A DNA stretch of 5,528 bases from a virus: IMG/VR virus record IMGVR_UViG_3300045988_005712, positions 1 through 5,528 of that record. One strand, given 5' to 3'. Positions within the stretch are counted from its first letter, which is position 1, and the number at the start of each line of letters is the position of its first letter. The translations under genes and the position numbers were made by a program. The notes below the pieces were generated by a model, which ran no database searches, was not told the origin of the DNA, and saw only the letters and a list, made by a program, of their open reading frames with translations. Positions 1 to 5,528 of the stretch are shown in pieces.

Positions 1-119
1 CTGGGATGAGGTGCCGAAAGACATCAAACTCAAGTTTGACAACGACGTGGACAAATTCATCGCAAGTTTTGGAAGCGTCGAATGGGCCAAAAATCTGGGC
101 ATTTACCAAGAAAAAAAAG
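1..119. repeat. Terminal direct repeat, copy 1 (identical to 5410..5528); assembly overlap of a circular genome
   Basis: Base-by-base comparison shows 1..119 equals 5410..5528 with no mismatch. The reading frame of the ORF that runs off the 3' end continues seamlessly at position 120. Confidence 0.97.
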
Positions 120-160
120 CCGAACCCGAAGCAACAGAAGTAACGGAGGCTAAAGAGTGA
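2..160 (+). CDS. VP3: 3' end of the VP3 internal scaffolding gene; redundant copy plus the true C-terminus of the ORF that starts near 5084 and wraps the circle
   Basis: Frame 2 is open from the window edge: WDEVPKDIKLKFDNDVDKFIASFGSVEWAKNLGIYQEKKAEPEATEVTEAKE, then TGA at 158..160. The stop overlaps the VP1 GTG start as GTGA (157..160). Confidence 0.8.
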   Translation, partial: WDEVPKDIKLKFDNDVDKFIASFGSVEWAKNLGIYQEKKAEPEATEVTEAKE

Positions 161-1797
161 ACAGAAACAAAGACGCAGGATTCAATCAAGTCCCACGGCT
201 GGACATTACACGAAGTCGCTTCAAGAGGCGGCAGGATGTAAAGCTCACGCTCAATGCTGGACAGCTTATTCCGTTCTACGTGGATGAAGTGCTCCCGGGT
301 GATACCTTCAGTATCGATCAGGCAGCAATTATCCGTATGACGACACCTATCTTCCCGGTTATGGACAACTGTCACATGGATATTTACTACTTCAATGTAC
401 CCTGCCGTATCATCTGGGACCACTTCAAACGATTTATGGGCGAAAATGATGCCGGTCCGTGGGCACAGACTCAGGAATACTTCATCCCGCAGGTCAGAGT
501 AACTGGCACAGCCGACAAGCCGGCACCTTATGAAGGAAGCATCATGGACTACATGGGCATTCCTACCAAGGTGAGCAGAGGAACTGATAGTGCATTCACC
601 ATTAATGCACTGCCATTCAGAGCCTACGCCATGATCTGGCAGGAGTGGTTCCGAGACCAGAACGTAGACAATCCGGCCATCAACAGCACCACAGACGCGA
701 CCATAGACTATAAGGACGATGAAACAAAGGGCATGGACGCGGAAAAGCCGGATTTGGAGTACATCCTTCAGAACGCATACACGGGCGGCAGACCGCTGCC
801 AGTGAATAAGTACCACGACTACTTCACATCGGCTCTGCCATCCCCACAAAAAGGGCCGAATGTGCAGCTCCCATTAGAGGGAAACGCTGCAATATTCGGA
901 TACAGTGACTACAAAAGGACAAAGATGAGCAACCCGTCGGCAGTCGGGGGGTTACAAAACCAGAACATCCCGCTTGGAGTTGTAGGGACCAGTCCCAAAA
1001 ACGAGCCAGTATACTTAGGCGCAAGGATGGATAATGTAACGTCCGCAACCGTCAATCAATTACGACAGGCATTTCAAGTTCAGAAATACTATGAGCAGCT
1101 GGCACGAGGCGGCAGCCGCTACCGCGAGATGATTTATTCGCTGTTCCACACCAAAATCAGCGACAAGACGGTACAAATTCCTGAGTACCTAGGCGGAACA
1201 CGCATCACTATCAACATGAGTCAGGTCATCCAGACCAGCGGCACAACCACAGAGAGTCCGCAGGGCAACGCAGCAGCAATAAGTGTTACGCCGTACAACG
1301 GGAGCATGTTTACGAAGAGCTTCGAAGAGCACGGCTATGTTATCGGCGTGTGCTGCATCCGGCATGACCATACCTACCAGCAGGGCTTGGAACGCATGTG
1401 GAGCCGCAAAACCAATCTGGATTTCTATTATCCAGTCTTTGCAAACCTGGGAGAGCAAGCTATTCTGAAGAAGGAGCTATATCTCACTGGTACGAGCACT
1501 GATGAACAGGTCTTTGGTTATCAGGAAGCTTGGGCAGAATACCGAATGAAACCGAACCGCATCAGCGGCAAGTTCCGTTCGAATGCAACGGGGACGTTGG
1601 ACAGCTGGCACTACGGCGACAACTACAAAGAGACTCCGAGCCTGAGTCAAGCATGGATGAAGGAAGGAGACTCTGAAATTCAGAGAACTTTGGCCGTGGA
1701 AAACGAACCTCAGTTTATCATAGACACCGTCATCGACAATACATCTGTGAGGCCGATGCCAATGTACAGCATTCCGGGTCTCGTGGACCATCACTAA
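157..1797 (+). CDS. VP1: Major capsid protein VP1 (Microviridae F-like capsid, gokushovirus type), 546 aa
   Basis: The translation carries blocks I recognise from gokushovirus/Chlamydia-phage VP1: FNQVP, LIPFYVDEVLPGDTF, TPIFPVMDN, LPFRAYAMIWQEWFRDQN, KYHDYFTSALPSPQKG and VNQLRQAFQVQKYYEQLARGGSRYRE. The GTG start is preceded by GGAGG at 145..149 (7-nt spacer). The first in-frame ATG would delete conserved N-terminal blocks. Confidence 0.95.
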   Translation: MNRNKDAGFNQVPRLDITRSRFKRRQDVKLTLNAGQLIPFYVDEVLPGDTFSIDQAAIIRMTTPIFPVMDNCHMDIYYFNVPCRIIWDHFKRFMGENDAGPWAQTQEYFIPQVRVTGTADKPAPYEGSIMDYMGIPTKVSRGTDSAFTINALPFRAYAMIWQEWFRDQNVDNPAINSTTDATIDYKDDETKGMDAEKPDLEYILQNAYTGGRPLPVNKYHDYFTSALPSPQKGPNVQLPLEGNAAIFGYSDYKRTKMSNPSAVGGLQNQNIPLGVVGTSPKNEPVYLGARMDNVTSATVNQLRQAFQVQKYYEQLARGGSRYREMIYSLFHTKISDKTVQIPEYLGGTRITINMSQVIQTSGTTTESPQGNAAAISVTPYNGSMFTKSFEEHGYVIGVCCIRHDHTYQQGLERMWSRKTNLDFYYPVFANLGEQAILKKELYLTGTSTDEQVFGYQEAWAEYRMKPNRISGKFRSNATGTLDSWHYGDNYKETPSLSQAWMKEGDSEIQRTLAVENEPQFIIDTVIDNTSVRPMPMYSIPGLVDHH

Positions 1798-1861
1798 AGT
1801 TTTTCGTTATTGTTATCCTAGAATAGCAATAATATAACGTAACAACGACAAAAATAAGAAT

Positions 1862-1896
1862 CCTCAGCTGAGAGTGTCAGCTGAGGCCTCAGCTGA
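1862..1896 (+). repeat. Three copies of a 10-mer in alternating orientation: CCTCAGCTGA (1862..1871), TCAGCTGAGG (1877..1886), CCTCAGCTGA (1887..1896). They give two mutually exclusive hairpins.
   Basis: Direct reading. Copy 1 pairs with copy 2 (10-bp stem, 5-nt loop GAGTG). Alternatively copy 2 pairs with copy 3, forming a perfect 20-nt palindrome. Confidence 0.85.
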
Positions 1897-1907
1897 CGAA
1901 AGGGGGA

Positions 1908-1938
1908 AGCCCGGGGCAATACCCCGGGCTATTTTATT
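1908..1938 (+). terminator. Rho-independent terminator between VP1 and VP2
   Basis: AGCCCGGGG (1908..1916), loop CAATA, CCCCGGGCT (1922..1930), then ATTTTATT running directly into the VP2 ATG at 1939. Confidence 0.65.
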
Positions 1939-2745
1939 ATGGGATTAGCAGCAATCGGCAGCGCACTACTCGGAATCGGCAAACAACTACTCCCAACGAT
2001 CGCCGGAGGACTCATAAACAAATTCCTAGGCGGAAACCTGATGGAAAGCAATGGAGGGAGCACACAGCACAACGAAAGCACAAGCCAAGGAGGCGGCTAC
2101 AGCAGCGCCGCCAGCGGCGTAAACCGAGAACAAAACCTGCAAGACTGGAACAGCATGCTAGGGGCAATTCAAAGCAATATGCAAAGCCAGCAGAAGTTTA
2201 ACCGTAAAAGCATGTTCGAGCAAATGGGCTATAACACCATGGCAGCAATCACTCAGGGTGTATATAACCAGATAAGCAACAACGCAGCAATGTCCTACAA
2301 CAGCGCAGAAGCAGCCAAAAACAGAGCTTGGCAAGAGCAAATGAGCAATACAGCTTATCAGCGAGCTGTGGAAGACATGCGAAAAGCAGGAATCAACCCT
2401 ATCTTAGCATACCAACAGGGCGGAGCGAGCACGCCGGGAGGCGCACAAGGCACTATCAGCGGGGCAAGTATGGGTCTCGCAAGCAGTAGTGCGGCGACCG
2501 CAAGTGCTCTGGGAGTAAGTCAGAACCACAACAACACATGGAGCAAAAGTGAAAGCAACTGGTACAACGCAGCGCAAGCAGTTGGAGACGCAACAAGCTG
2601 GTCCCACACAAGCGCAGACAAAGCGTTAAAGGCGTTCGAAAACGTTCTGGGCCAGCTAGGAAACCTTACAAGCGACAATTCCAAAGACGGTTCAACGAAA
2701 GACAAAGACGGCTTTGGGGGAAGCAAAGGGGGCAAATTTAAATAA
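1939..2745 (+). CDS. VP2: Minor capsid / DNA pilot protein VP2, 268 aa
   Basis: Hydrophobic Gly/Ala/Leu-rich N-terminus (MGLAAIGSALLGIGKQLLPTIAGGLI), S/G/A/Q/N low-complexity body, and the block NTAYQRAVEDMRKAGINPILAYQQGG typical of gokushovirus VP2. Its position between VP1 and VP4 is the canonical one. There is no obvious SD; the start sits in the T-tract of the upstream terminator. Confidence 0.88.
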   Translation: MGLAAIGSALLGIGKQLLPTIAGGLINKFLGGNLMESNGGSTQHNESTSQGGGYSSAASGVNREQNLQDWNSMLGAIQSNMQSQQKFNRKSMFEQMGYNTMAAITQGVYNQISNNAAMSYNSAEAAKNRAWQEQMSNTAYQRAVEDMRKAGINPILAYQQGGASTPGGAQGTISGASMGLASSSAATASALGVSQNHNNTWSKSESNWYNAAQAVGDATSWSHTSADKALKAFENVLGQLGNLTSDNSKDGSTKDKDGFGGSKGGKFK

Positions 2746-3764
2746 TGGGGTGCAACAAGCCATTAATTCGGTTTTATGTGCCTCATGACAGAGAAGCGAG
2801 TGGGCGAGTGTACTCACTCGCTTCTTTCAACGAAATTCATAAAACCAAAATCCAGTATGAAGACCTGATGTACCGCAAAGATGTAATGATGATACCATGC
2901 GGACAATGCACAGGATGCAAACTACGCAAGCGCAAAGACTGGGCAACACGAATGGAGCTGGAAGCATACAACCACGACAAGGAAAGCATCTGGTTTATCA
3001 CGTTAACCTATGATGACGACCACGTACCAACACAGGACACAGAAACAGGGGAAATCTTCAAGGGAGGCGTAAACGTATGGAGAGACGCCTCAGAGCGTCC
3101 CAGAACGGTGCAAACTTTAAACGTGGAGGATGTCCAGTTATTCATGAAAAGGCTTAGAAAGGCCGTCAGCGGGCCTCTCAGATACTTCTTAACCGGAGAG
3201 TATGGAGACAACACCTCAAGACCACACTATCACATGATACTATACGGATGGTATCCGGACGACTTAAAGCCAATTCACAGGCTGTCAAGGTTTGGACACT
3301 ACACGAGTGATAAACTGGTCAAAGTCTGGGGACAAGGGACGGTTGACATAGCTCAGGCAACGCCGGAAACGTATAATTACGTAGCTGGATATGTGACCAA
3401 GAAGCTGTACGGAAACGACAAGGACAAGTACAAGAAAATGGGACTCATACCGCCATTCTGCGTAATGAGCCGAAAGCCAGGACTCGGAGATGAATGGTTC
3501 CAAAAGAACCAAGAAAGGCTATGGCAACTTGGATACATCCAGCTGACAAACGGCAAAAGAGCAGCAATTCCAGAATATTATTGGCGAAAGCTGGAAGCTG
3601 AAAATCCTGAAAAGGCGTGGAGAATCAAGCAGTACCGGCAAGAAAAAGCCATTGCATCCCTAATCGAAAGAAACATGGAAACTGACAAACGGTATGCCGA
3701 ACAACTGGCCGATAAAGAAGCAGTCATGAAGAAGAAGATGTCCAAAGCAAAGGGCGTTTTTTAG
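2745..3764 (+). CDS. VP4: Replication initiation protein VP4 (HUH rolling-circle endonuclease, phiX174 A-like), 339 aa
   Basis: RCR motif I FITLTY (nt 2994..3011); HUH motif PHYHMILYG (HYHMILYG = nt 3225..3248); two-tyrosine motif YVAGYVTKK (nt 3378..3404, compare phiX174 A YVAKYVNK); Cys cluster CGQCTGC near the N-terminus. The ATG overlaps the VP2 stop as TAATG (2743..2747). Confidence 0.93.
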   Translation: MGCNKPLIRFYVPHDREASGRVYSLASFNEIHKTKIQYEDLMYRKDVMMIPCGQCTGCKLRKRKDWATRMELEAYNHDKESIWFITLTYDDDHVPTQDTETGEIFKGGVNVWRDASERPRTVQTLNVEDVQLFMKRLRKAVSGPLRYFLTGEYGDNTSRPHYHMILYGWYPDDLKPIHRLSRFGHYTSDKLVKVWGQGTVDIAQATPETYNYVAGYVTKKLYGNDKDKYKKMGLIPPFCVMSRKPGLGDEWFQKNQERLWQLGYIQLTNGKRAAIPEYYWRKLEAENPEKAWRIKQYRQEKAIASLIERNMETDKRYAEQLADKEAVMKKKMSKAKGVF

Positions 3765-3773
3765 CCCTGGTGT

Positions 3774-3822
3774 CACTCAGCCAAGTAACTATCAAGTATA
3801 TATACTTGGCTGAGTGTTTTTT
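3774..3822 (+). terminator. Strong rho-independent terminator after VP4
   Basis: 13-bp perfect stem CACTCAGCCAAGT (3774..3786) / ACTTGGCTGAGTG (3804..3816) followed by TTTTTT (3817..3822). The loop region also offers an alternative inner palindrome, CAAGTATATATACTTG (3793..3808). Confidence 0.8.
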
Positions 3823-3832
3823 AGGTTTATCA

Positions 3833-3878
3833 GCACGCGCACGCACGCGCACGTAATCGCGCACATGCGCGCGCGATT
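3833..3878. repeat. GC-rich alternating purine/pyrimidine tract: tandem GCACGCGCAC x2 (3833..3852) plus inverted repeat AATCGCGC (3855..3862) / GCGCGATT (3871..3878)
   Basis: Direct reading of gcacgcgcacgcacgcgcacgtaatcgcgcacatgcgcgcgcgatt. It consists almost entirely of CG/CA/TG steps and abuts a pure A/T tract. Confidence 0.8.
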
Positions 3879-3910
3879 TTTATTATTTTATTATTTATTT
3901 ATTATTTACT
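3877..3910. promoter_or_regulatory. A/T tract with only one C (TTTTATTATTTTATTATTTATTTATTATTTACT); candidate DNA unwinding element
   Basis: 34 nt with a single C (3909) and no G, built of reiterated TTATTT units. It lies between the GC tract and the phased TAG repeats. Confidence 0.5.
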
Positions 3911-3930
3911 TGTTGTAGTCGTAGTAGTAG
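3910..3930 (+). repeat. Seven phased T-N-G trinucleotides (TTG TTG TAG TCG TAG TAG TAG), read 3'-to-5' as GAT GAT GAT GCT GAT GTT GTT; DnaA-trio-like element
   Basis: Direct reading. It is followed by GGG (3930..3932) and preceded by the A/T tract. This is the order GC cluster / 3'-GAT-5' trios / AT-rich region known from bacterial oriC unwinding modules. Confidence 0.45.
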
Positions 3931-3962
3931 GGAGTGTTGAAATGTTGAAAACTATAAATATC

Positions 3963-3978
3963 TATCGTTAGAACGATA
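3963..3978. promoter_or_regulatory. 16-bp palindrome TATCGTT-AG-AACGATA (operator-like dyad)
   Basis: 7-bp arms separated by 2 nt. That loop is too short for a hairpin, so a dimeric protein-binding site on dsDNA is the more likely reading. Confidence 0.35.
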
Positions 3979-3981
3979 TTT

Positions 3982-3990
3982 TGTGGTTAA
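3982..3990 (-). promoter_or_regulatory. DnaA box variant TTAACCACA (one mismatch to TTATNCACA)
   Basis: The + strand reads TGTGGTTAA, preceded by ATTTT like the other two boxes. Confidence 0.5.
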
Positions 3991-4008
3991 TTTTGATGTT
4001 GAAAATTT

Positions 4009-4017
4009 TGTGGATAA
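4009..4017 (-). promoter_or_regulatory. Perfect consensus DnaA box TTATCCACA
   Basis: The + strand reads TGTGGATAA, whose reverse complement is TTATCCACA, the high-affinity E. coli R1/R4-type box. Confidence 0.6.
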
Positions 4018-4046
4018 CTTGTTGAATTGTTGAAAGTGTAGCAATA

Positions 4047-4066
4047 TGCACAAAACCATTTGTGCA
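4047..4066 (+). other. Perfect hairpin TGCACAAA-ACCA-TTTGTGCA inside the iteron/DnaA-box array
   Basis: 8-bp stem and 4-nt loop, read directly. It lies 6 nt upstream of the third DnaA box. Confidence 0.6.
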
Positions 4067-4072
4067 ACTTTT

Positions 4073-4081
4073 TGTGGAAAA
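4073..4081 (-). promoter_or_regulatory. DnaA box variant TTTTCCACA (one mismatch)
   Basis: The + strand reads TGTGGAAAA. It is part of a 22-nt composite repeat, TTTTGTGGAAAACCTGTTGAAA (4070..4091), which matches TTTTGTGGATAACTTGTTGAAT (4006..4027) at 19 of 22 positions. Confidence 0.5.
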
Positions 4082-4126
4082 CCTGTTGAAAGTGTTAAAA
4101 GTGTTGAAAACTCGAATTAAAGGCAA

Positions 4127-4192
4127 TCCGGCGAGCGAAACCGGAAAGTTACGTCATGCTCTTCGTACGGCGCACCGCGCCTAGCGCATGAC
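4127..4192 (+). other. GC-rich hairpin cluster; candidate ssDNA priming signal (complementary-strand origin)
   Basis: Hairpin 1: TCCGG (4127..4131) / CCGGA (4141..4145) with a 9-nt loop. Hairpin 2: outer stem GTCATGC (4153..4159) / GCATGAC (4186..4192) enclosing inner stem GGCGC (4169..4173) / GCGCC (4177..4181) with loop ACC. No ORF overlaps it, and it is a GC island in an AT-rich spacer. Confidence 0.4.
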
Positions 4193-4210
4193 CTTTTAGA
4201 TTAAATGCAC

Positions 4211-4239
4211 AAAAGAGGCTTGACGAGCCTCTTTTTTTT
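4211..4239 (+). terminator. Rho-independent terminator (potentially bidirectional: A-tract upstream, T8 downstream)
   Basis: AAAAGAGGCT (4211..4220), loop TGACG, AGCCTCTTTT (4226..4235), with the T-run extending to 4239. Confidence 0.55.
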
Positions 4240-4248
4240 ATATATACT
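4220..4248 (+). promoter_or_regulatory. Sigma70-type promoter TTGACG-17 nt-TATACT, likely driving the small-ORF/VP3/VP1 operon
   Basis: -35 TTGACG (4220..4225) and -10 TATACT (4243..4248), each matching consensus at 5 of 6 positions, with the optimal 17-nt spacer. The -35 lies in the loop and 3' arm of the terminator hairpin. Confidence 0.55.
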
Positions 4249-4348
4249 AAAGGCAGTCAAACAGCACAGAAGTGCATTTAACAAATTCCATTTTTACAAA
4301 AATAACTTTACAAAGAGGTGAACTGTTCTGACTCTCCAAGAAATCAAG

Positions 4349-4432
4349 ATGCTGTTTGAAAACATCCAAAAAATCCTTGCCATGCTAGACAAAATCTACC
4401 ACACAGTAACAGGGAACAAACCGGAGGCTTGA
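4349..4432 (+). CDS. Possible 27-aa leader ORF (MLFENIQKILAMLDKIYHTVTGNKPEA)
   Basis: ATG..TGA, with the stop 1 nt before the next ATG (4434). There is no SD in front of the ATG. An AGAGGTG (4314..4320) is positioned instead for an in-frame CTG at 4328. Too short to judge. Confidence 0.25.
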   Translation: MLFENIQKILAMLDKIYHTVTGNKPEA

Positions 4433-4433
4433 A

Positions 4434-4661
4434 ATGGAAAACAAACCATGGAATGTAAGAGACCAGACCGACGAGAACCTTATGCGAGAGTTGACGAAAA
4501 CCTACAAAGCAATAGACGCCGCATACAAAATGGCAAGACAGGCCGCAAATATCGAGGACGCAAAGTATTATATTGACCTTGCGTTCAGGAAAAAGGCGCT
4601 TGCCAGCAATATCGAGGTGGAAATCCTCAGAAGGGACATCAACCATGGCAAAGAGGAGTAA
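4434..4661 (+). CDS. Hypothetical 75-aa protein, predicted helical and charged
   Basis: GGAGG at 4423..4427 lies 6 nt before the ATG. The ORF fits the same-strand packed gene order. I recognise no family. Confidence 0.5.
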   Translation: MENKPWNVRDQTDENLMRELTKTYKAIDAAYKMARQAANIEDAKYYIDLAFRKKALASNIEVEILRRDINHGKEE

Positions 4662-4764
4662 AGTACACAAGTCGAAAGACGCAAAAATCTACAACAAGAC
4701 CGCACGAAAGACCAAGGCAATTAACCTGGGAAGCGGGGCAATGCGAGGAGGTATCCGACTGTGA
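4645..4764 (+). CDS. Small, highly basic DNA-binding/packaging protein (gokushovirus ORF8/VP8-like, functional analogue of phiX174 J), 39 aa
   Basis: MAKRSKVHKSKDAKIYNKTARKTKAINLGSGAMRGGIRL has 12 K/R in 39 aa and ends in MRGGIRL. That ending matches my recollection of the Chlamydia-phage ORF8 C-terminus (MRGGIRF). AAGGGA lies 8 nt upstream. I prefer the internal ATG at 4645 over the tracked start at 4573. Confidence 0.65.
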   Translation: MAKRSKVHKSKDAKIYNKTARKTKAINLGSGAMRGGIRL

Positions 4765-4859
4765 GCGCTGTATTCGCAAGCATGACTATGGCATTTCTAG
4801 CAGCGGGGTTTTACCTCGTCATTAACGCAATCAACATCATTAAAGAATGGTTCAAATAA
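4761..4859 (+). CDS. Untracked 32-aa hydrophobic peptide with a single predicted transmembrane helix (MSAVFASMTMAFLAAGFYLVINAINIIKEWFK)
   Basis: The GTG start overlaps the upstream stop as GTGA (4761..4764), with GGAGG at 4747..4751 (9-nt spacer). Alternative ATG starts are at 4782 and 4788. TAA is at 4857..4859. The ORF exactly fills the gap before the next gene's SD. Confidence 0.4.
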   Translation: MSAVFASMTMAFLAAGFYLVINAINIIKEWFK

Positions 4860-4869
4860 GGAGAACAAC

Positions 4870-5106
4870 ATGAACGTATACGGAATTTTCGATAAATGCG
4901 TGATGGGTTACATCACCATCTTTACCGAACGCGACGACAAAGTGGCCGAACGCAATTTTAAAATCGCACTGACTGATGAACGAAACATCATGAGCAAGAC
5001 CCCGAGCGATTACCGGCTGGTAAAGCTGGCAAAATTCGACGAGAAAACGGGCCTGTTTGAGAATGAAAAGGAGAACATCTTCGATGGCGTATCGCTCAGT
5101 AAGTAA
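4870..5106 (+). CDS. Small nonstructural protein, gokushovirus VP5-like, 78 aa
   Basis: AAGGAG (4858..4863) lies 6 nt before the ATG. The pattern VYGIFD...ERDDKVAERNF...TPSDYRLVKLAKFDEKTGLF resembles the small conserved VP5/ORF5 family as I recall it (Y-I-D ... A-R-F ... P-DY-L ... FD--TG). The family assignment is from memory only. Confidence 0.55.
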   Translation: MNVYGIFDKCVMGYITIFTERDDKVAERNFKIALTDERNIMSKTPSDYRLVKLAKFDEKTGLFENEKENIFDGVSLSK

Positions 5107-5528
5107 TTTCAGAGAGACCGCAAGGACAAAACCTACCGAGGCCGGAGAGACCATGAGGCGCACATACCTTTGGGAGATCAACGAAAAAGGCGAAAAGGTA
5201 CTGAAGCCTGACCAAGTCATCGACCAGCAAGCGGAAATCGACAGCTATCTGGAAGAAACCAAGCTGGAAAACATCATCCGGCGGGCCTCCATCGACCCTG
5301 ACCTTGCGGCCAGACTAGTGCCGGACGTAGGCAATGGGATTCAGGACGCAACCGAGATGCCAGAAAACCTGATGGAGCTTCAGAACATCATACTGCGGGC
5401 GGAGCAAATCTGGGATGAGGTGCCGAAAGACATCAAACTCAAGTTTGACAACGACGTGGACAAATTCATCGCAAGTTTTGGAAGCGTCGAATGGGCCAAA
5501 AATCTGGGCATTTACCAAGAAAAAAAAG
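5084..5528 (+). CDS. VP3: Internal scaffolding protein VP3; runs off the window and finishes at 160 after circular wrap (161 aa from ATG 5084)
   Basis: Frame 2 is open from 5024 to the window end. AAGGAG (5068..5073) lies 10 nt before ATG 5084; alternative starts are 5063 and 5153. The block MPENLMELQNIILRAEQIWDEVPKDIKLKFDNDVDKFI is typical of the gokushovirus scaffold C-terminal half. The ORF track missed it because it crosses the window edge. Confidence 0.8.
   Translation, partial: MAYRSVSNFRETARTKPTEAGETMRRTYLWEINEKGEKVLKPDQVIDQQAEIDSYLEETKLENIIRRASIDPDLAARLVPDVGNGIQDATEMPENLMELQNIILRAEQIWDEVPKDIKLKFDNDVDKFIASFGSVEWAKNLGIYQEKK
5410..5528. repeat. Terminal direct repeat, copy 2 (identical to 1..119)
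   Basis: Same comparison as copy 1. The offset of 5409 nt gives the unit genome length. Confidence 0.97.

Follow-up and report, generated by a model that had tools for sequence, protein, structure and literature searches.

Gokushoviruses rank with the commonest phages in the mammalian gut, and for nearly all of them the hosts and the control of replication are obscure. Here, we report that a repeat array in the non-coding region of a gokushovirus genome (IMG/VR virus record IMGVR_UViG_3300045988_005712, positions 1 to 5,528; this whole stretch of 5,528 nucleotides [nt] is called the window) is, with a probability of roughly 0.68, the DnaA-box part of a phage-borne mimic of a bacterial origin (~3879-4110, ~230 bases), which would be used for opening by host DnaA and for the start of phage replication. 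Sequence comparison shows that the module is composed, spaced and conserved like a DnaA-dependent unwinding element in the dialect of the host. It may have been captured from the origin of a bacterial chromosome. The first 119 nt of the window (1-119) are repeated exactly at 5410-5528, so the genome is circular, 5409 nt long and written with an overlap. It belongs to a single-stranded DNA (ssDNA) phage (Gokushovirinae, Microviridae), and the module lies between the gene for the replication initiator VP4 and the VP5/VP3 block of the 5409-nt circle, within a non-coding stretch (3765-4433) that is unusually long.

The module and the block that bounds it on the left consist of the following parts (S1 to S10 are conserved box slots; BUS, basal unwinding system).

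3836-3878: GC-rich alternating purine/pyrimidine block (CGCGCACGCACGCGCACG...), self-folding; left bound of the AT-rich stretch.
3879-3905: AT-rich stretch, 27 nt, 100% A+T; candidate duplex-unwinding element.
3906-3918, + strand: 13-mer TTACTTGTTGTAG, in phase with the trios.
3919-3930, + strand: DnaA-trio array, TCG + TAG TAG TAG (5'-TAG-3' = 3'-GAT-5').
3931-3934, + strand: 4-nt spacer GGAG, the "GC-rich gap" of the BUS.
3935-3951, + strand: abutting tandem DnaA-box pair, S1 TGTTGAAA and S2 TGTTGAAAA, counterparts of Bacillus subtilis DnaA-box 7 and 6.
3982-3990, + strand: lineage-specific one-mismatch box TGTGGTTAA.
3997-4036, + strand: central cluster, S3 TGTTGAAAA (3997), S4 TGTGGATAA (4009), S5 TGTTGAAT (4020) and S6 TGTTGAAAG (4028).
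4073-4110, + strand: distal cluster, S7 TGTGGAAAA (4073), S8 TGTTGAAAG (4084), S9 TGTTAAAAG (4093) and S10 TGTTGAAAA (4102).

As defined by Pelliciari et al. (2021, PMC8287927), a BUS has a DnaA box no more than two mismatches from the Escherichia coli box TTATCCACA or from the motif of the species, usually with a second one in tandem (up to four mismatches, 0 to 3 bp away, oriented alike and directed at the trios). No more than 16 bp (mode, 13; Bacilli, 12), ~4 nt of them forming a gap, separate the better box from the first trio; there are three or more NAN trios, preferably 3'-GAT-5' beside the box, and an AT-rich region for unwinding lies beyond them. S2 in the window (TGTTGAAAA) has two mismatches to TTATCCACA and none to the spelling found in Ruminococcus/Oscillospiraceae (see below), and S1 (TGTTGAAA(T)) abuts it in the same orientation. 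The spacer is 8 + 4 = 12 bp, as in Bacilli; TAG TAG TAG stands at 3922-3930, is invariant in relatives and continues in phase upstream as TAG, TTG, TTG; and the flank at 3879-3905, shorter in relatives, is 100% A+T. Table S1 of the same study (PMC8287927) is written 3' to 5'; reversed, its E. coli row reads TATTAGGATCGCACTGCCCTGTGGATAA and its B. subtilis row 5'-...TAGTAG-GGCC-TGTGGATT-TGTGGATAA-3'. The equivalent in the window is 5'-TAGTAGTAG-GGAG-TGTTGAAA-TGTTGAAAA, with the polarity of both rows (5'-trios-spacer-TGTxGAxAA-3'). Every feature that defines a BUS at the sequence level is present in the window.

Set against the B. subtilis incC BUS (DnaA-box 6/7, GC spacer, DnaA-trios and AT-rich region; Richardson 2016, Pelliciari 2021, PMC8287927), the phage module is the same in order, polarity and spacing, with a tandem 9+8-nt box pair, a 4-nt spacer, at least three TAG trios, an AT-rich flank and further clusters. 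It differs in lying on a 5.4-kb ssDNA phage genome instead of in the dnaA-dnaN gap, in having a nick-site-like 13-mer in place of the distal trios, in its short, GC-bounded AT-rich stretch and in its boxes, most of which are spelled TGTTGAAAA. Located on a microvirus genome, and not on a chromosome beside dnaA/dnaN as the cell's own origin, the module would work like the core of an oriC without being a chromosomal oriC.

The array had been picked out earlier from the letters alone (the sequence-only reading) as eight same-strand iterons at 3935-4109, six exact and two with one mismatch, some of them joined to DnaA boxes in a composite repeat. A recount bore out these figures. The octamer TGTTGAAA occurs exactly six times (3935, 3943, 3997, 4028, 4084 and 4102), always on the + strand and nowhere else in the window, against an expected count of 0.28, and none of 200 dinucleotide shuffles reached six copies. 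One-mismatch copies stand at 4020 (TGTTGAAT) and 4093 (TGTTAAAA), and a third (TGTGGAAA, 4073) lies inside one of the sites that had been called DnaA boxes. The reported phasing (8, 8 and 9+9 nt from start to start) and the 19/22 identity of composite units 4006-4027 and 4070-4091 were reproduced. The DnaA-like boxes are likewise real; on the - strand they read as a perfect E. coli consensus (TTATCCACA) at 4009-4017, TTTTCCACA at 4073-4081 and TTAACCACA, one mismatch from a DnaA box, at 3982-3990 (TGTGGTTAA on the + strand). The pattern TGTKGAWAA matched five times (0.29 expected), always within the array, and GTKGAWA matched 12 times (2.9 expected), eight of these within it. TGTTGAAAA is one change from the boxes at 4009-4017 and 4073-4081, and its reverse complement, TTTTCAACA, is one position off the TTWTNCACA consensus. 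The sequence-only reading had found the box array and missed the upstream half of the feature, which extends 5' to ~3879 and takes in the AT-rich stretch, the 13-mer, the TAG trios, the spacer and the abutting arrangement of the first box pair.

Related phages keep the array slot by slot. The non-coding region is retained in 39 GenBank gokushovirus records from faeces of human, pig, monkey, dog, raccoon and mink, some with a VP4 only ~55% identical to that of the window. Twenty genomes were aligned first, and the alignment was extended to 131 non-identical genomes, to which the slot counts below refer. In the smaller alignment TGTTGAAA alternates with TGTGGAAA at the same slots; in the larger one the ten slots S1 to S10 are conserved and the spacers between them are not. 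S1 is GTGGAWA in 103 genomes and GTTGAWA in 26, and S2 is GTTGAWA in 130/131. S4, which is the perfect consensus box in the window, is GTGGAWA in 16 and GTTGAWA in 102, being spelled TGTTGAAAA in 100/131, TGTGGAAAA in 9 and TGTGGATAA in 7; the corresponding counts are 36 and 90 at S7 and 27 and 96 at S8. The three spellings TGTTGAAAA, TGTGGAAAA and TGTGGATAA thus exchange at the same array slots. Because GTTGAWA and GTGGAWA replace each other at fixed slots (S1, S4, S7 and S8), the TGTTGAAA/TGTTGAAAA "iteron" and the DnaA box are most simply two forms of one binding site, and the earlier separation of iterons from DnaA boxes falls away. The box at 3982-3990, which had been counted as part of a third composite unit, is present in the window and occurs only in its own lineage, so it is not a conserved slot.

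The upstream half is at least as constant. The trio segment GTAGTAGTAG is invariant in 20/20 genomes and in ~100% of the 131, and GTKGAWA follows the last TAG at a distance of exactly 5 nt in 131/133 phage genomes and in 99/107 bacterial loci (described below); G+C makes up 56% of the 4-nt gap in phages and 75% in hosts. The AT-rich position, for which no single-strand structure is predicted in the window, holds 10 to 25 nt of A+T in relatives and is AT-rich in host origins too.

One bacterial genome per species was scanned with the pattern TAGTAGN{3,7}GTKGAAANGTTGAWAA, which returned 107 loci where a uniform-base estimate gives ~5. In 70/107 loci the match has DnaN within 600 nt and DnaA within 1500 nt, and Pfam confirmed the two proteins in three loci; 25/107 have only one of the two, often since the locus is cut, and 12/107, about the chance level, have neither. 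In all, ~95 bacterial genomes have the core sequence in the dnaA-dnaN gap. VP1 and VP4 were looked for and are encoded in none of the 107 loci, and a prophage or contaminant source of the matches was rejected on this count. The matched organisms are almost all Firmicutes, mostly Clostridia and Negativicutes (Oscillospiraceae, Ruminococcus, Lachnospiraceae, Christensenella, Clostridium, Selenomonas, Phascolarctobacterium and Veillonellaceae). Clostridia origins align over ~190 columns with a profile of the phage module (E values of 1e-15 to 4e-18), and the best matches come from uncultured Clostridia, Oscillospiraceae and Ruminococcus, R. flavefaciens among them. Phage and host share, in a joint alignment, the order AT-rich stretch, trios, GGGC spacer, box pair, ~45-nt spacer, three-box cluster, second spacer and last cluster. 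In Ruminococcus/Oscillospiraceae origins, the central box cluster is the one that aligns with the phage central cluster; the phage distal cluster aligns with a host distal cluster of three to four boxes that ends in TGTTGAAAAC. The spacers are not alignable between phage and host origins, and direct capture and convergence are therefore inseparable.

These origins bear directly on the explanation preferred by the sequence-only reading, plasmid-type iterons bound by a phage initiator (VP4, the 75-amino-acid [aa] protein or VP5) with DnaA boxes as helpers. The repeats are indeed direct, same-strand and clustered beside a replication gene. The same words, however, fill the box positions of bacterial dnaA-dnaN origins that have no phage genes, which argues against VP4 or a small phage protein as the binder. 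Nor do the words covary with the initiator as iterons in relatives were expected to do: they stay constant while VP4 identity spans 35-97%, including genomes in which VP4 has diverged to 35-42%. The unit of 8-9 nt is that of a DnaA box, as opposed to the 17-22 nt of an iteron. The genome has no gene for an iteron-type Rep; VP4 is a nickase of the HUH kind (PHYH, YVAGY), and the 75-aa open reading frame (ORF) matches no family. When VP4 was aligned with other initiators, those of Chp2 and phiMH2K included, both its HUH motif (PHYH) and its two-tyrosine motif (YVAGYVTKK) were invariant. The array is of an origin type that binds protein, as had been proposed, and the option of DnaA sites that came with that proposal is essentially supported; the iteron framing is not, and we consider it highly improbable.

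The spelling of the boxes points to the host. Spacers between dnaA and dnaN that are dominated by GTTGAWA hold 8-20 copies of it against 0-5 of GTGGAWA, and DnaA domain IV at these loci reads A-R-Q/K ... G-R-D-H-S-T-I-V-Y where the canonical protein has P-R-Q ... G-R-D-H-T-T-V-L-H. Selenomonas and Clostridium have a canonical DnaA and mixed or GTGGA-type boxes. The GTTGAWA-type protein carries A423, S435, V438 and Y439 (E. coli numbering). Base-specific contacts of DnaA are made by residues 399, 423, 432-435 and 438-439, and variation at 435 and 438-439 has been proposed to alter box recognition (PMC5043019). This looks like a clade-specific change of DnaA-box recognition in Ruminococcus/Oscillospiraceae, in which TGTTGAAAA would probably be a high-affinity site given the right host. 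Since TGTTGAAAA is the box spelling of Ruminococcus/Oscillospiraceae dnaA-dnaN origins, Clostridia of this type are the likely hosts, and the phages probably infect them. A hint of Bacteroidales was dropped: in Porphyromonas gingivalis, TGTTGAAAA occurs in a low-scoring predicted system, and the genome scan gave almost only Firmicutes. As separate observations, the Ruminococcus/Oscillospiraceae origins (L028, L056, L057, L064, L072, L121 and others) consist almost wholly of TGTTGAAA(A) boxes, and DnaA of one Oscillospiraceae subgroup reads GRNHSTMTISY.

The module is shared by >150 gut gokushoviruses. The TAGTAG/box pattern matched at least 120 IMG/VR contigs; among the matches listed, all but three are microviruses of 4-6.2 kb. 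When genomes were sampled by VP4 similarity and not by the pattern, 44/58 passed a strict module test, and several of the other 14/58 carry the module with small changes. Among the 129 pattern-positive microvirus genomes listed (VP4 35-97% identical to that of the window), the module starts 88-670 nt past the VP4 stop and is in gene orientation in 127/129. In KT264784 (2582-2809) and MT121961 (2568-2773), which come from independent studies (L016 and L017), the whole module is inverted and lies in the gap between VP2 and VP4, so it can move as a cassette. This spread also bears on whether the module is a functionless passenger, that is, recently acquired host origin DNA, or an artefact of chimeric assembly. 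Its strong likeness to host origins would suit either. The phage-specific 13-mer and GC block, on the other hand, recur in >150 independent genomes from human, pig, monkey, dog, raccoon and mink, obtained by several laboratories, and conservation follows the slots; the comparative data effectively refute both explanations, to which we give next to no credence.

Viral contigs were also scanned for a version of the module with canonical boxes. This gave 38 contigs (L309-L346; records of 8-275 kb) with convincing modules in the order trios, spacer and tandem boxes, the boxes being spelled TGTGGATAA and followed by more boxes downstream; several are near-identical copies from contigs of ~33-36 kb. 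Host contamination was rejected as their source, dnaA/dnaN lying near none of them. No canonical-box module was found in other microviruses, as 0/38 contigs have VP1 or VP4 and all records are at least 8 kb. Given canonical modules in larger viral contigs, origin mimicry may be broader or common among phages. The TGTTGAAAA-type module is carried by L166 and L226.

The 13-mer next to the trios sets the phage module apart from host origins, which lack it and have further TAG trios in its place. It is nearly invariant in the 20- and 131-genome alignments (TAACTTGTTGTAG in most relatives, TTACTTGTTGTAG in the window) and is followed by two variable bases and then GTAGTAGTAG. Where extra bases separate the 13-mer from the trios, they make up a whole trio (L177), which preserves the phase. 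Its ACTTG core equals the cleavage site of phiX174, for which RefSeq places the origin of viral-strand synthesis at the A after CAACTTG, and the 13-mer is a candidate recognition or nick site for VP4 (ACTTG^TTG, on the model of phiX174 between 3912 and 3913). Gokushoviruses without the module carry a motif (T)ACTTG(A/T)T... in the loop of a perfect hairpin of 10-17 bp on the coding strand (ACTTGTTGTA or ACTTGAT in the five listed here).

phiMH2K: stem 11 bp, loop GGACCCTACTTGTTGTAA.
SpV4: stem 10 bp, loop ATTACTTGTTATA.
Chp2: stem 14 bp, loop TCTACTTGAT.
L307: stem 11 bp, loop CATATACTTGATGTA.
L303: stem 17 bp, loop CCTCTTGAT.

Around the 13-mer of 151 module-bearing genomes, a search for such a hairpin found no flanking stem of more than 5 bp, and the stretch of AT-rich sequence, 13-mer, trios and boxes showed no intrinsic structure when folded as ssDNA. 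A nick-type motif that elsewhere sits in a hairpin loop thus appears here where DnaA would melt the duplex. The other strand does have a hairpin copy.

3774-3816: 14-bp perfect hairpin directly 3' of the VP4 stop, terminator-like with a T-run on the + strand.

The - strand loop of this hairpin (TATATACTTGATAGT) is a phiX174-like nick motif (ACTTG^AT). An equivalent hairpin is present in 146/151 module-bearing genomes, with loop TACTTGAT or CTTCTTGAT on the non-coding strand and stems that covary between subclades (cactcagccaagta, agcccagtacct and gtgggcctaatcct). The window therefore has two nick-like motifs, ~118 nt apart, which point away from each other and flank the GC block and the AT-rich stretch. 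Where the module is inverted, the hairpin is unmoved and both motifs are on the non-coding strand. Four-fold degenerate sites of VP1 show a coding strand rich in A and poor in T for the clade (AT skew, +0.27 to +0.69; window, +0.30) and rich in T for Chp2, SpV4 and four metagenomic module-less gokushoviruses (-0.32 to -0.79), with phiMH2K (+0.26) as an exception. These figures give a hint that the clade might nick or package the non-coding strand; as an indicator of the packaged strand, base composition was set aside on account of phiMH2K and is a hint only.

If the module is an origin mimic, host DnaA-ATP would occupy the ten boxes of the double-stranded replicative form, and a DnaA filament would extend from the proximal pair S2/S1 onto the TAG trios of the + strand and melt the adjoining 13-mer and AT-rich stretch, with the GC block on the left limiting the bubble. 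The phage would exploit this host-driven opening to initiate replication, which would be tied to the DnaA-ATP state of the host. The opening could present VP4 with a single-stranded nick-like 13-mer, load the host replicative helicase beside the rolling-circle origin or drive theta-type amplification of the replicative form; the most likely downstream use would be nick-site exposure, helicase loading or both, with theta amplification as a third option. More speculatively, and with considerable doubt, the clade may have made rolling-circle initiation dependent on the host initiator by moving the nick motif from a hairpin loop onto a DnaA module in trio phase, such that DnaA-ATP, and not cruciform extrusion, would expose the nick site or load the helicase and gate replication on the state of the host.

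Several points weigh against origin mimicry. With 27 nt here and 10-14 nt in many relatives, the AT-rich stretch is short, and a GC block bounds it. The nick-like hairpin on the opposite strand, with its counterparts in 146/151 genomes, means that DnaA melting may be unneeded for display of a nick site. The module is inverted relative to the genes in ~7 genomes (L016, L017, L019, L234, L271, L280 and L308), which is awkward if the 13-mer is the viral-strand nick site. The likeness to host origins could reflect convergence on shared motifs instead of capture. TGTTGAAAA departs from TTWTNCACA at the sixth position, so that a DnaA of the E. coli type would bind it weakly, and the case for it as the cognate site of the host DnaA is built on origin content and residue changes.

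The boxes could also serve another end. As a sink or decoy, the multicopy replicative form would titrate host DnaA in the manner of the E. coli datA locus and block or reprogram host initiation or dnaA autoregulation, with no role in phage replication; ten same-strand boxes, in the host's own spelling and on a molecule expected to be multicopy, would suit this well. A sink needs boxes only, however, and conservation in the module is highest in the parts that serve unwinding: trios, a 4-nt spacer of fixed length, the abutting pair with its orientation and the AT-rich flank. We regard this explanation as unlikely; titration could be a side effect of a module that mimics an origin.

Alternatively, the array could be a complementary-strand origin, at which DnaA would assemble a primosome on the incoming viral strand. 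Masai and Arai reportedly obtained such an "ABC primosome" in vitro on a hairpin carrying a DnaA box. Every ssDNA phage requires a priming signal, and the coding strand carries the TAG-trio strand, the one bound by DnaA as ssDNA, in ~95% of genomes. DnaA boxes must be double-stranded, however, and those of the window all run in the same direction, in a stretch that is unfolded as ssDNA and has no box in a hairpin stem; the neighbouring ultraconserved hairpins at 4114-4195 would be a better candidate. We think this role quite unlikely for the array.

The element at 4114-4195, ~80 nt long and just past the array, is 83-95% identical in 35-plus genomes, some of them with a VP4 only ~42% identical. 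It contains hairpins at 4127-4145 and 4153-4192 (inner stem GGCGC-ACC-GCGCC; DNA fold z = -2.8). Covariation was sought in it and none was found, the sequence being too invariant to show any, and Rfam gave no match to it. The element may be a complementary-strand origin or a signal for packaging.

Further downstream, the array could act on transcription, with DnaA repressing or activating the block of the 75-aa ORF, VP5, VP3 and VP1. DnaA is a known transcription factor, and the array is upstream of a promoter-like site at 4220-4248. Between the two, however, lie a terminator-like hairpin (4211-4235) and ~110 nt of other conserved sequence; the trios and the unwinding geometry would be left unexplained, and in some genomes the module is inverted or in the VP2-VP4 gap. 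Control of transcription is a very unlikely function for it. The hairpin at 4211-4235 (11 pairs and a T-run) overlaps the best promoter-like site of the window (TTGACG-17-TATACT, 4220-4248), and both are upstream of the 75-aa ORF.

Origins of P1 (oriR), pSC101, F, RK2 and R6K combine Rep iterons of 17-22 nt with a few auxiliary DnaA boxes and are melted by their own Rep; we know of no DnaA-trio system described for them. Like these, the module would let a mobile replicon recruit host DnaA through boxes beside an AT-rich region; unlike them, it has no separate iterons and no iteron-type Rep. By the same marks (a repeat unit of 8-9 nt that is a DnaA box, no co-variation with VP4 and no iteron-type Rep), it falls outside the class of iteron-type origins. 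The viral-strand origin of phiX174 (gpA, CAACTTG^ATATTAATAAC) shares its ACTTG core with the 13-mer and with the - strand loop of 3774-3816, and VP4 has the HUH and YVAxYxxKK motifs of the phiX174 replication-protein family; that origin, however, lies inside gene A, has no DnaA boxes and depends on supercoiling and gpA alone. Chp2, phiMH2K, SpV4 and two metagenomic genomes have the same motif in a coding-strand hairpin loop with no DnaA elements, whereas here the coding-strand copy is hairpin-free and fused to trios, and the copy with a hairpin lies on the opposite strand. Host DnaA is also bound by box clusters away from the chromosomal origin in datA of E. coli and in the oriC plasmids of Mollicutes, in which a dnaA-flanking box region can drive autonomous replication. 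An unwinding module is absent from datA, and oriC plasmids are laboratory constructs and not natural phage genomes.

DnaA boxes in plasmid and phage origins are already known, as is the unwinding system itself. What appears to be new is a complete trio/box system on a phage, notably an ssDNA rolling-circle phage, and its fusion to a nick-type motif. A literature search of incomplete coverage found no paper linking gokushoviruses with DnaA, Microviridae with "DnaA box" or oriC, or DnaA-trios with a phage origin; the sequence-only reading had likewise called the array no known feature of gokushoviruses, and it is nonetheless widespread in one large gut clade. If origin mimicry is correct, it would be the first found case of a DnaA-trio/box unwinding system on a phage, joining two initiation mechanisms that are usually kept separate, and would provide independent natural evidence for the trio-spacer-box geometry as the functional core of bacterial origins. 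It would also allow a sequence-based assignment of hosts (Ruminococcus/Oscillospiraceae-type Clostridia) for a clade of >150 genomes, imply that Oscillospiraceae use a variant DnaA box, TGTTGAAAA, with changed base-contact residues in DnaA, and raise the testable question of which strand is nicked and packaged.

Two elements in and beside the module vary in sequence among relatives. Most relatives have the same kind of GC block as 3836-3878 at the same place with another sequence (GCACGCGCGCACGCGCG, CGCACGCGTGCGCACG); its role may be to restrain unwinding, like a clamp, or to form Z-DNA or a cruciform. The other is a small hairpin.

4047-4066: 8-bp hairpin TGCACAAA-ACCA-TTTGTGCA, in the spacer between the central and distal clusters.

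This hairpin is kept only in the closer subclade, and other subclades have a different small hairpin (CGTCA...TGACG) there, which suggests that structure is kept rather than sequence.

Every gene of the window is on the + strand.

157-1797, + strand: VP1, major capsid protein.
1939-2745, + strand: VP2, pilot protein.
2745-3764, + strand: VP4, replication initiator.
4434-4661, + strand: 75-aa ORF, no family match.
4573-4764, + strand: basic 63-aa ORF.
4870-5106, + strand: VP5, annotated "DNA binding protein".
From 5057, + strand: VP3, spanning the circle junction.

Coding and RNA explanations of the array were both rejected. Its ORFs are just 40 and 52 aa long with no family match, and conservation tracks 9-nt slots and not codons; Rfam gave nothing at E<=1 for 3765-4433, and there are no tRNA or tmRNA genes. 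Elsewhere in the window, in the gap between VP1 and VP2 (1861-1937), Rfam scored anti-hemB at 23.8 bits (gathering score, 49.5); this weak match falls on two terminator-like hairpins and probably reflects a mere intergenic terminator.

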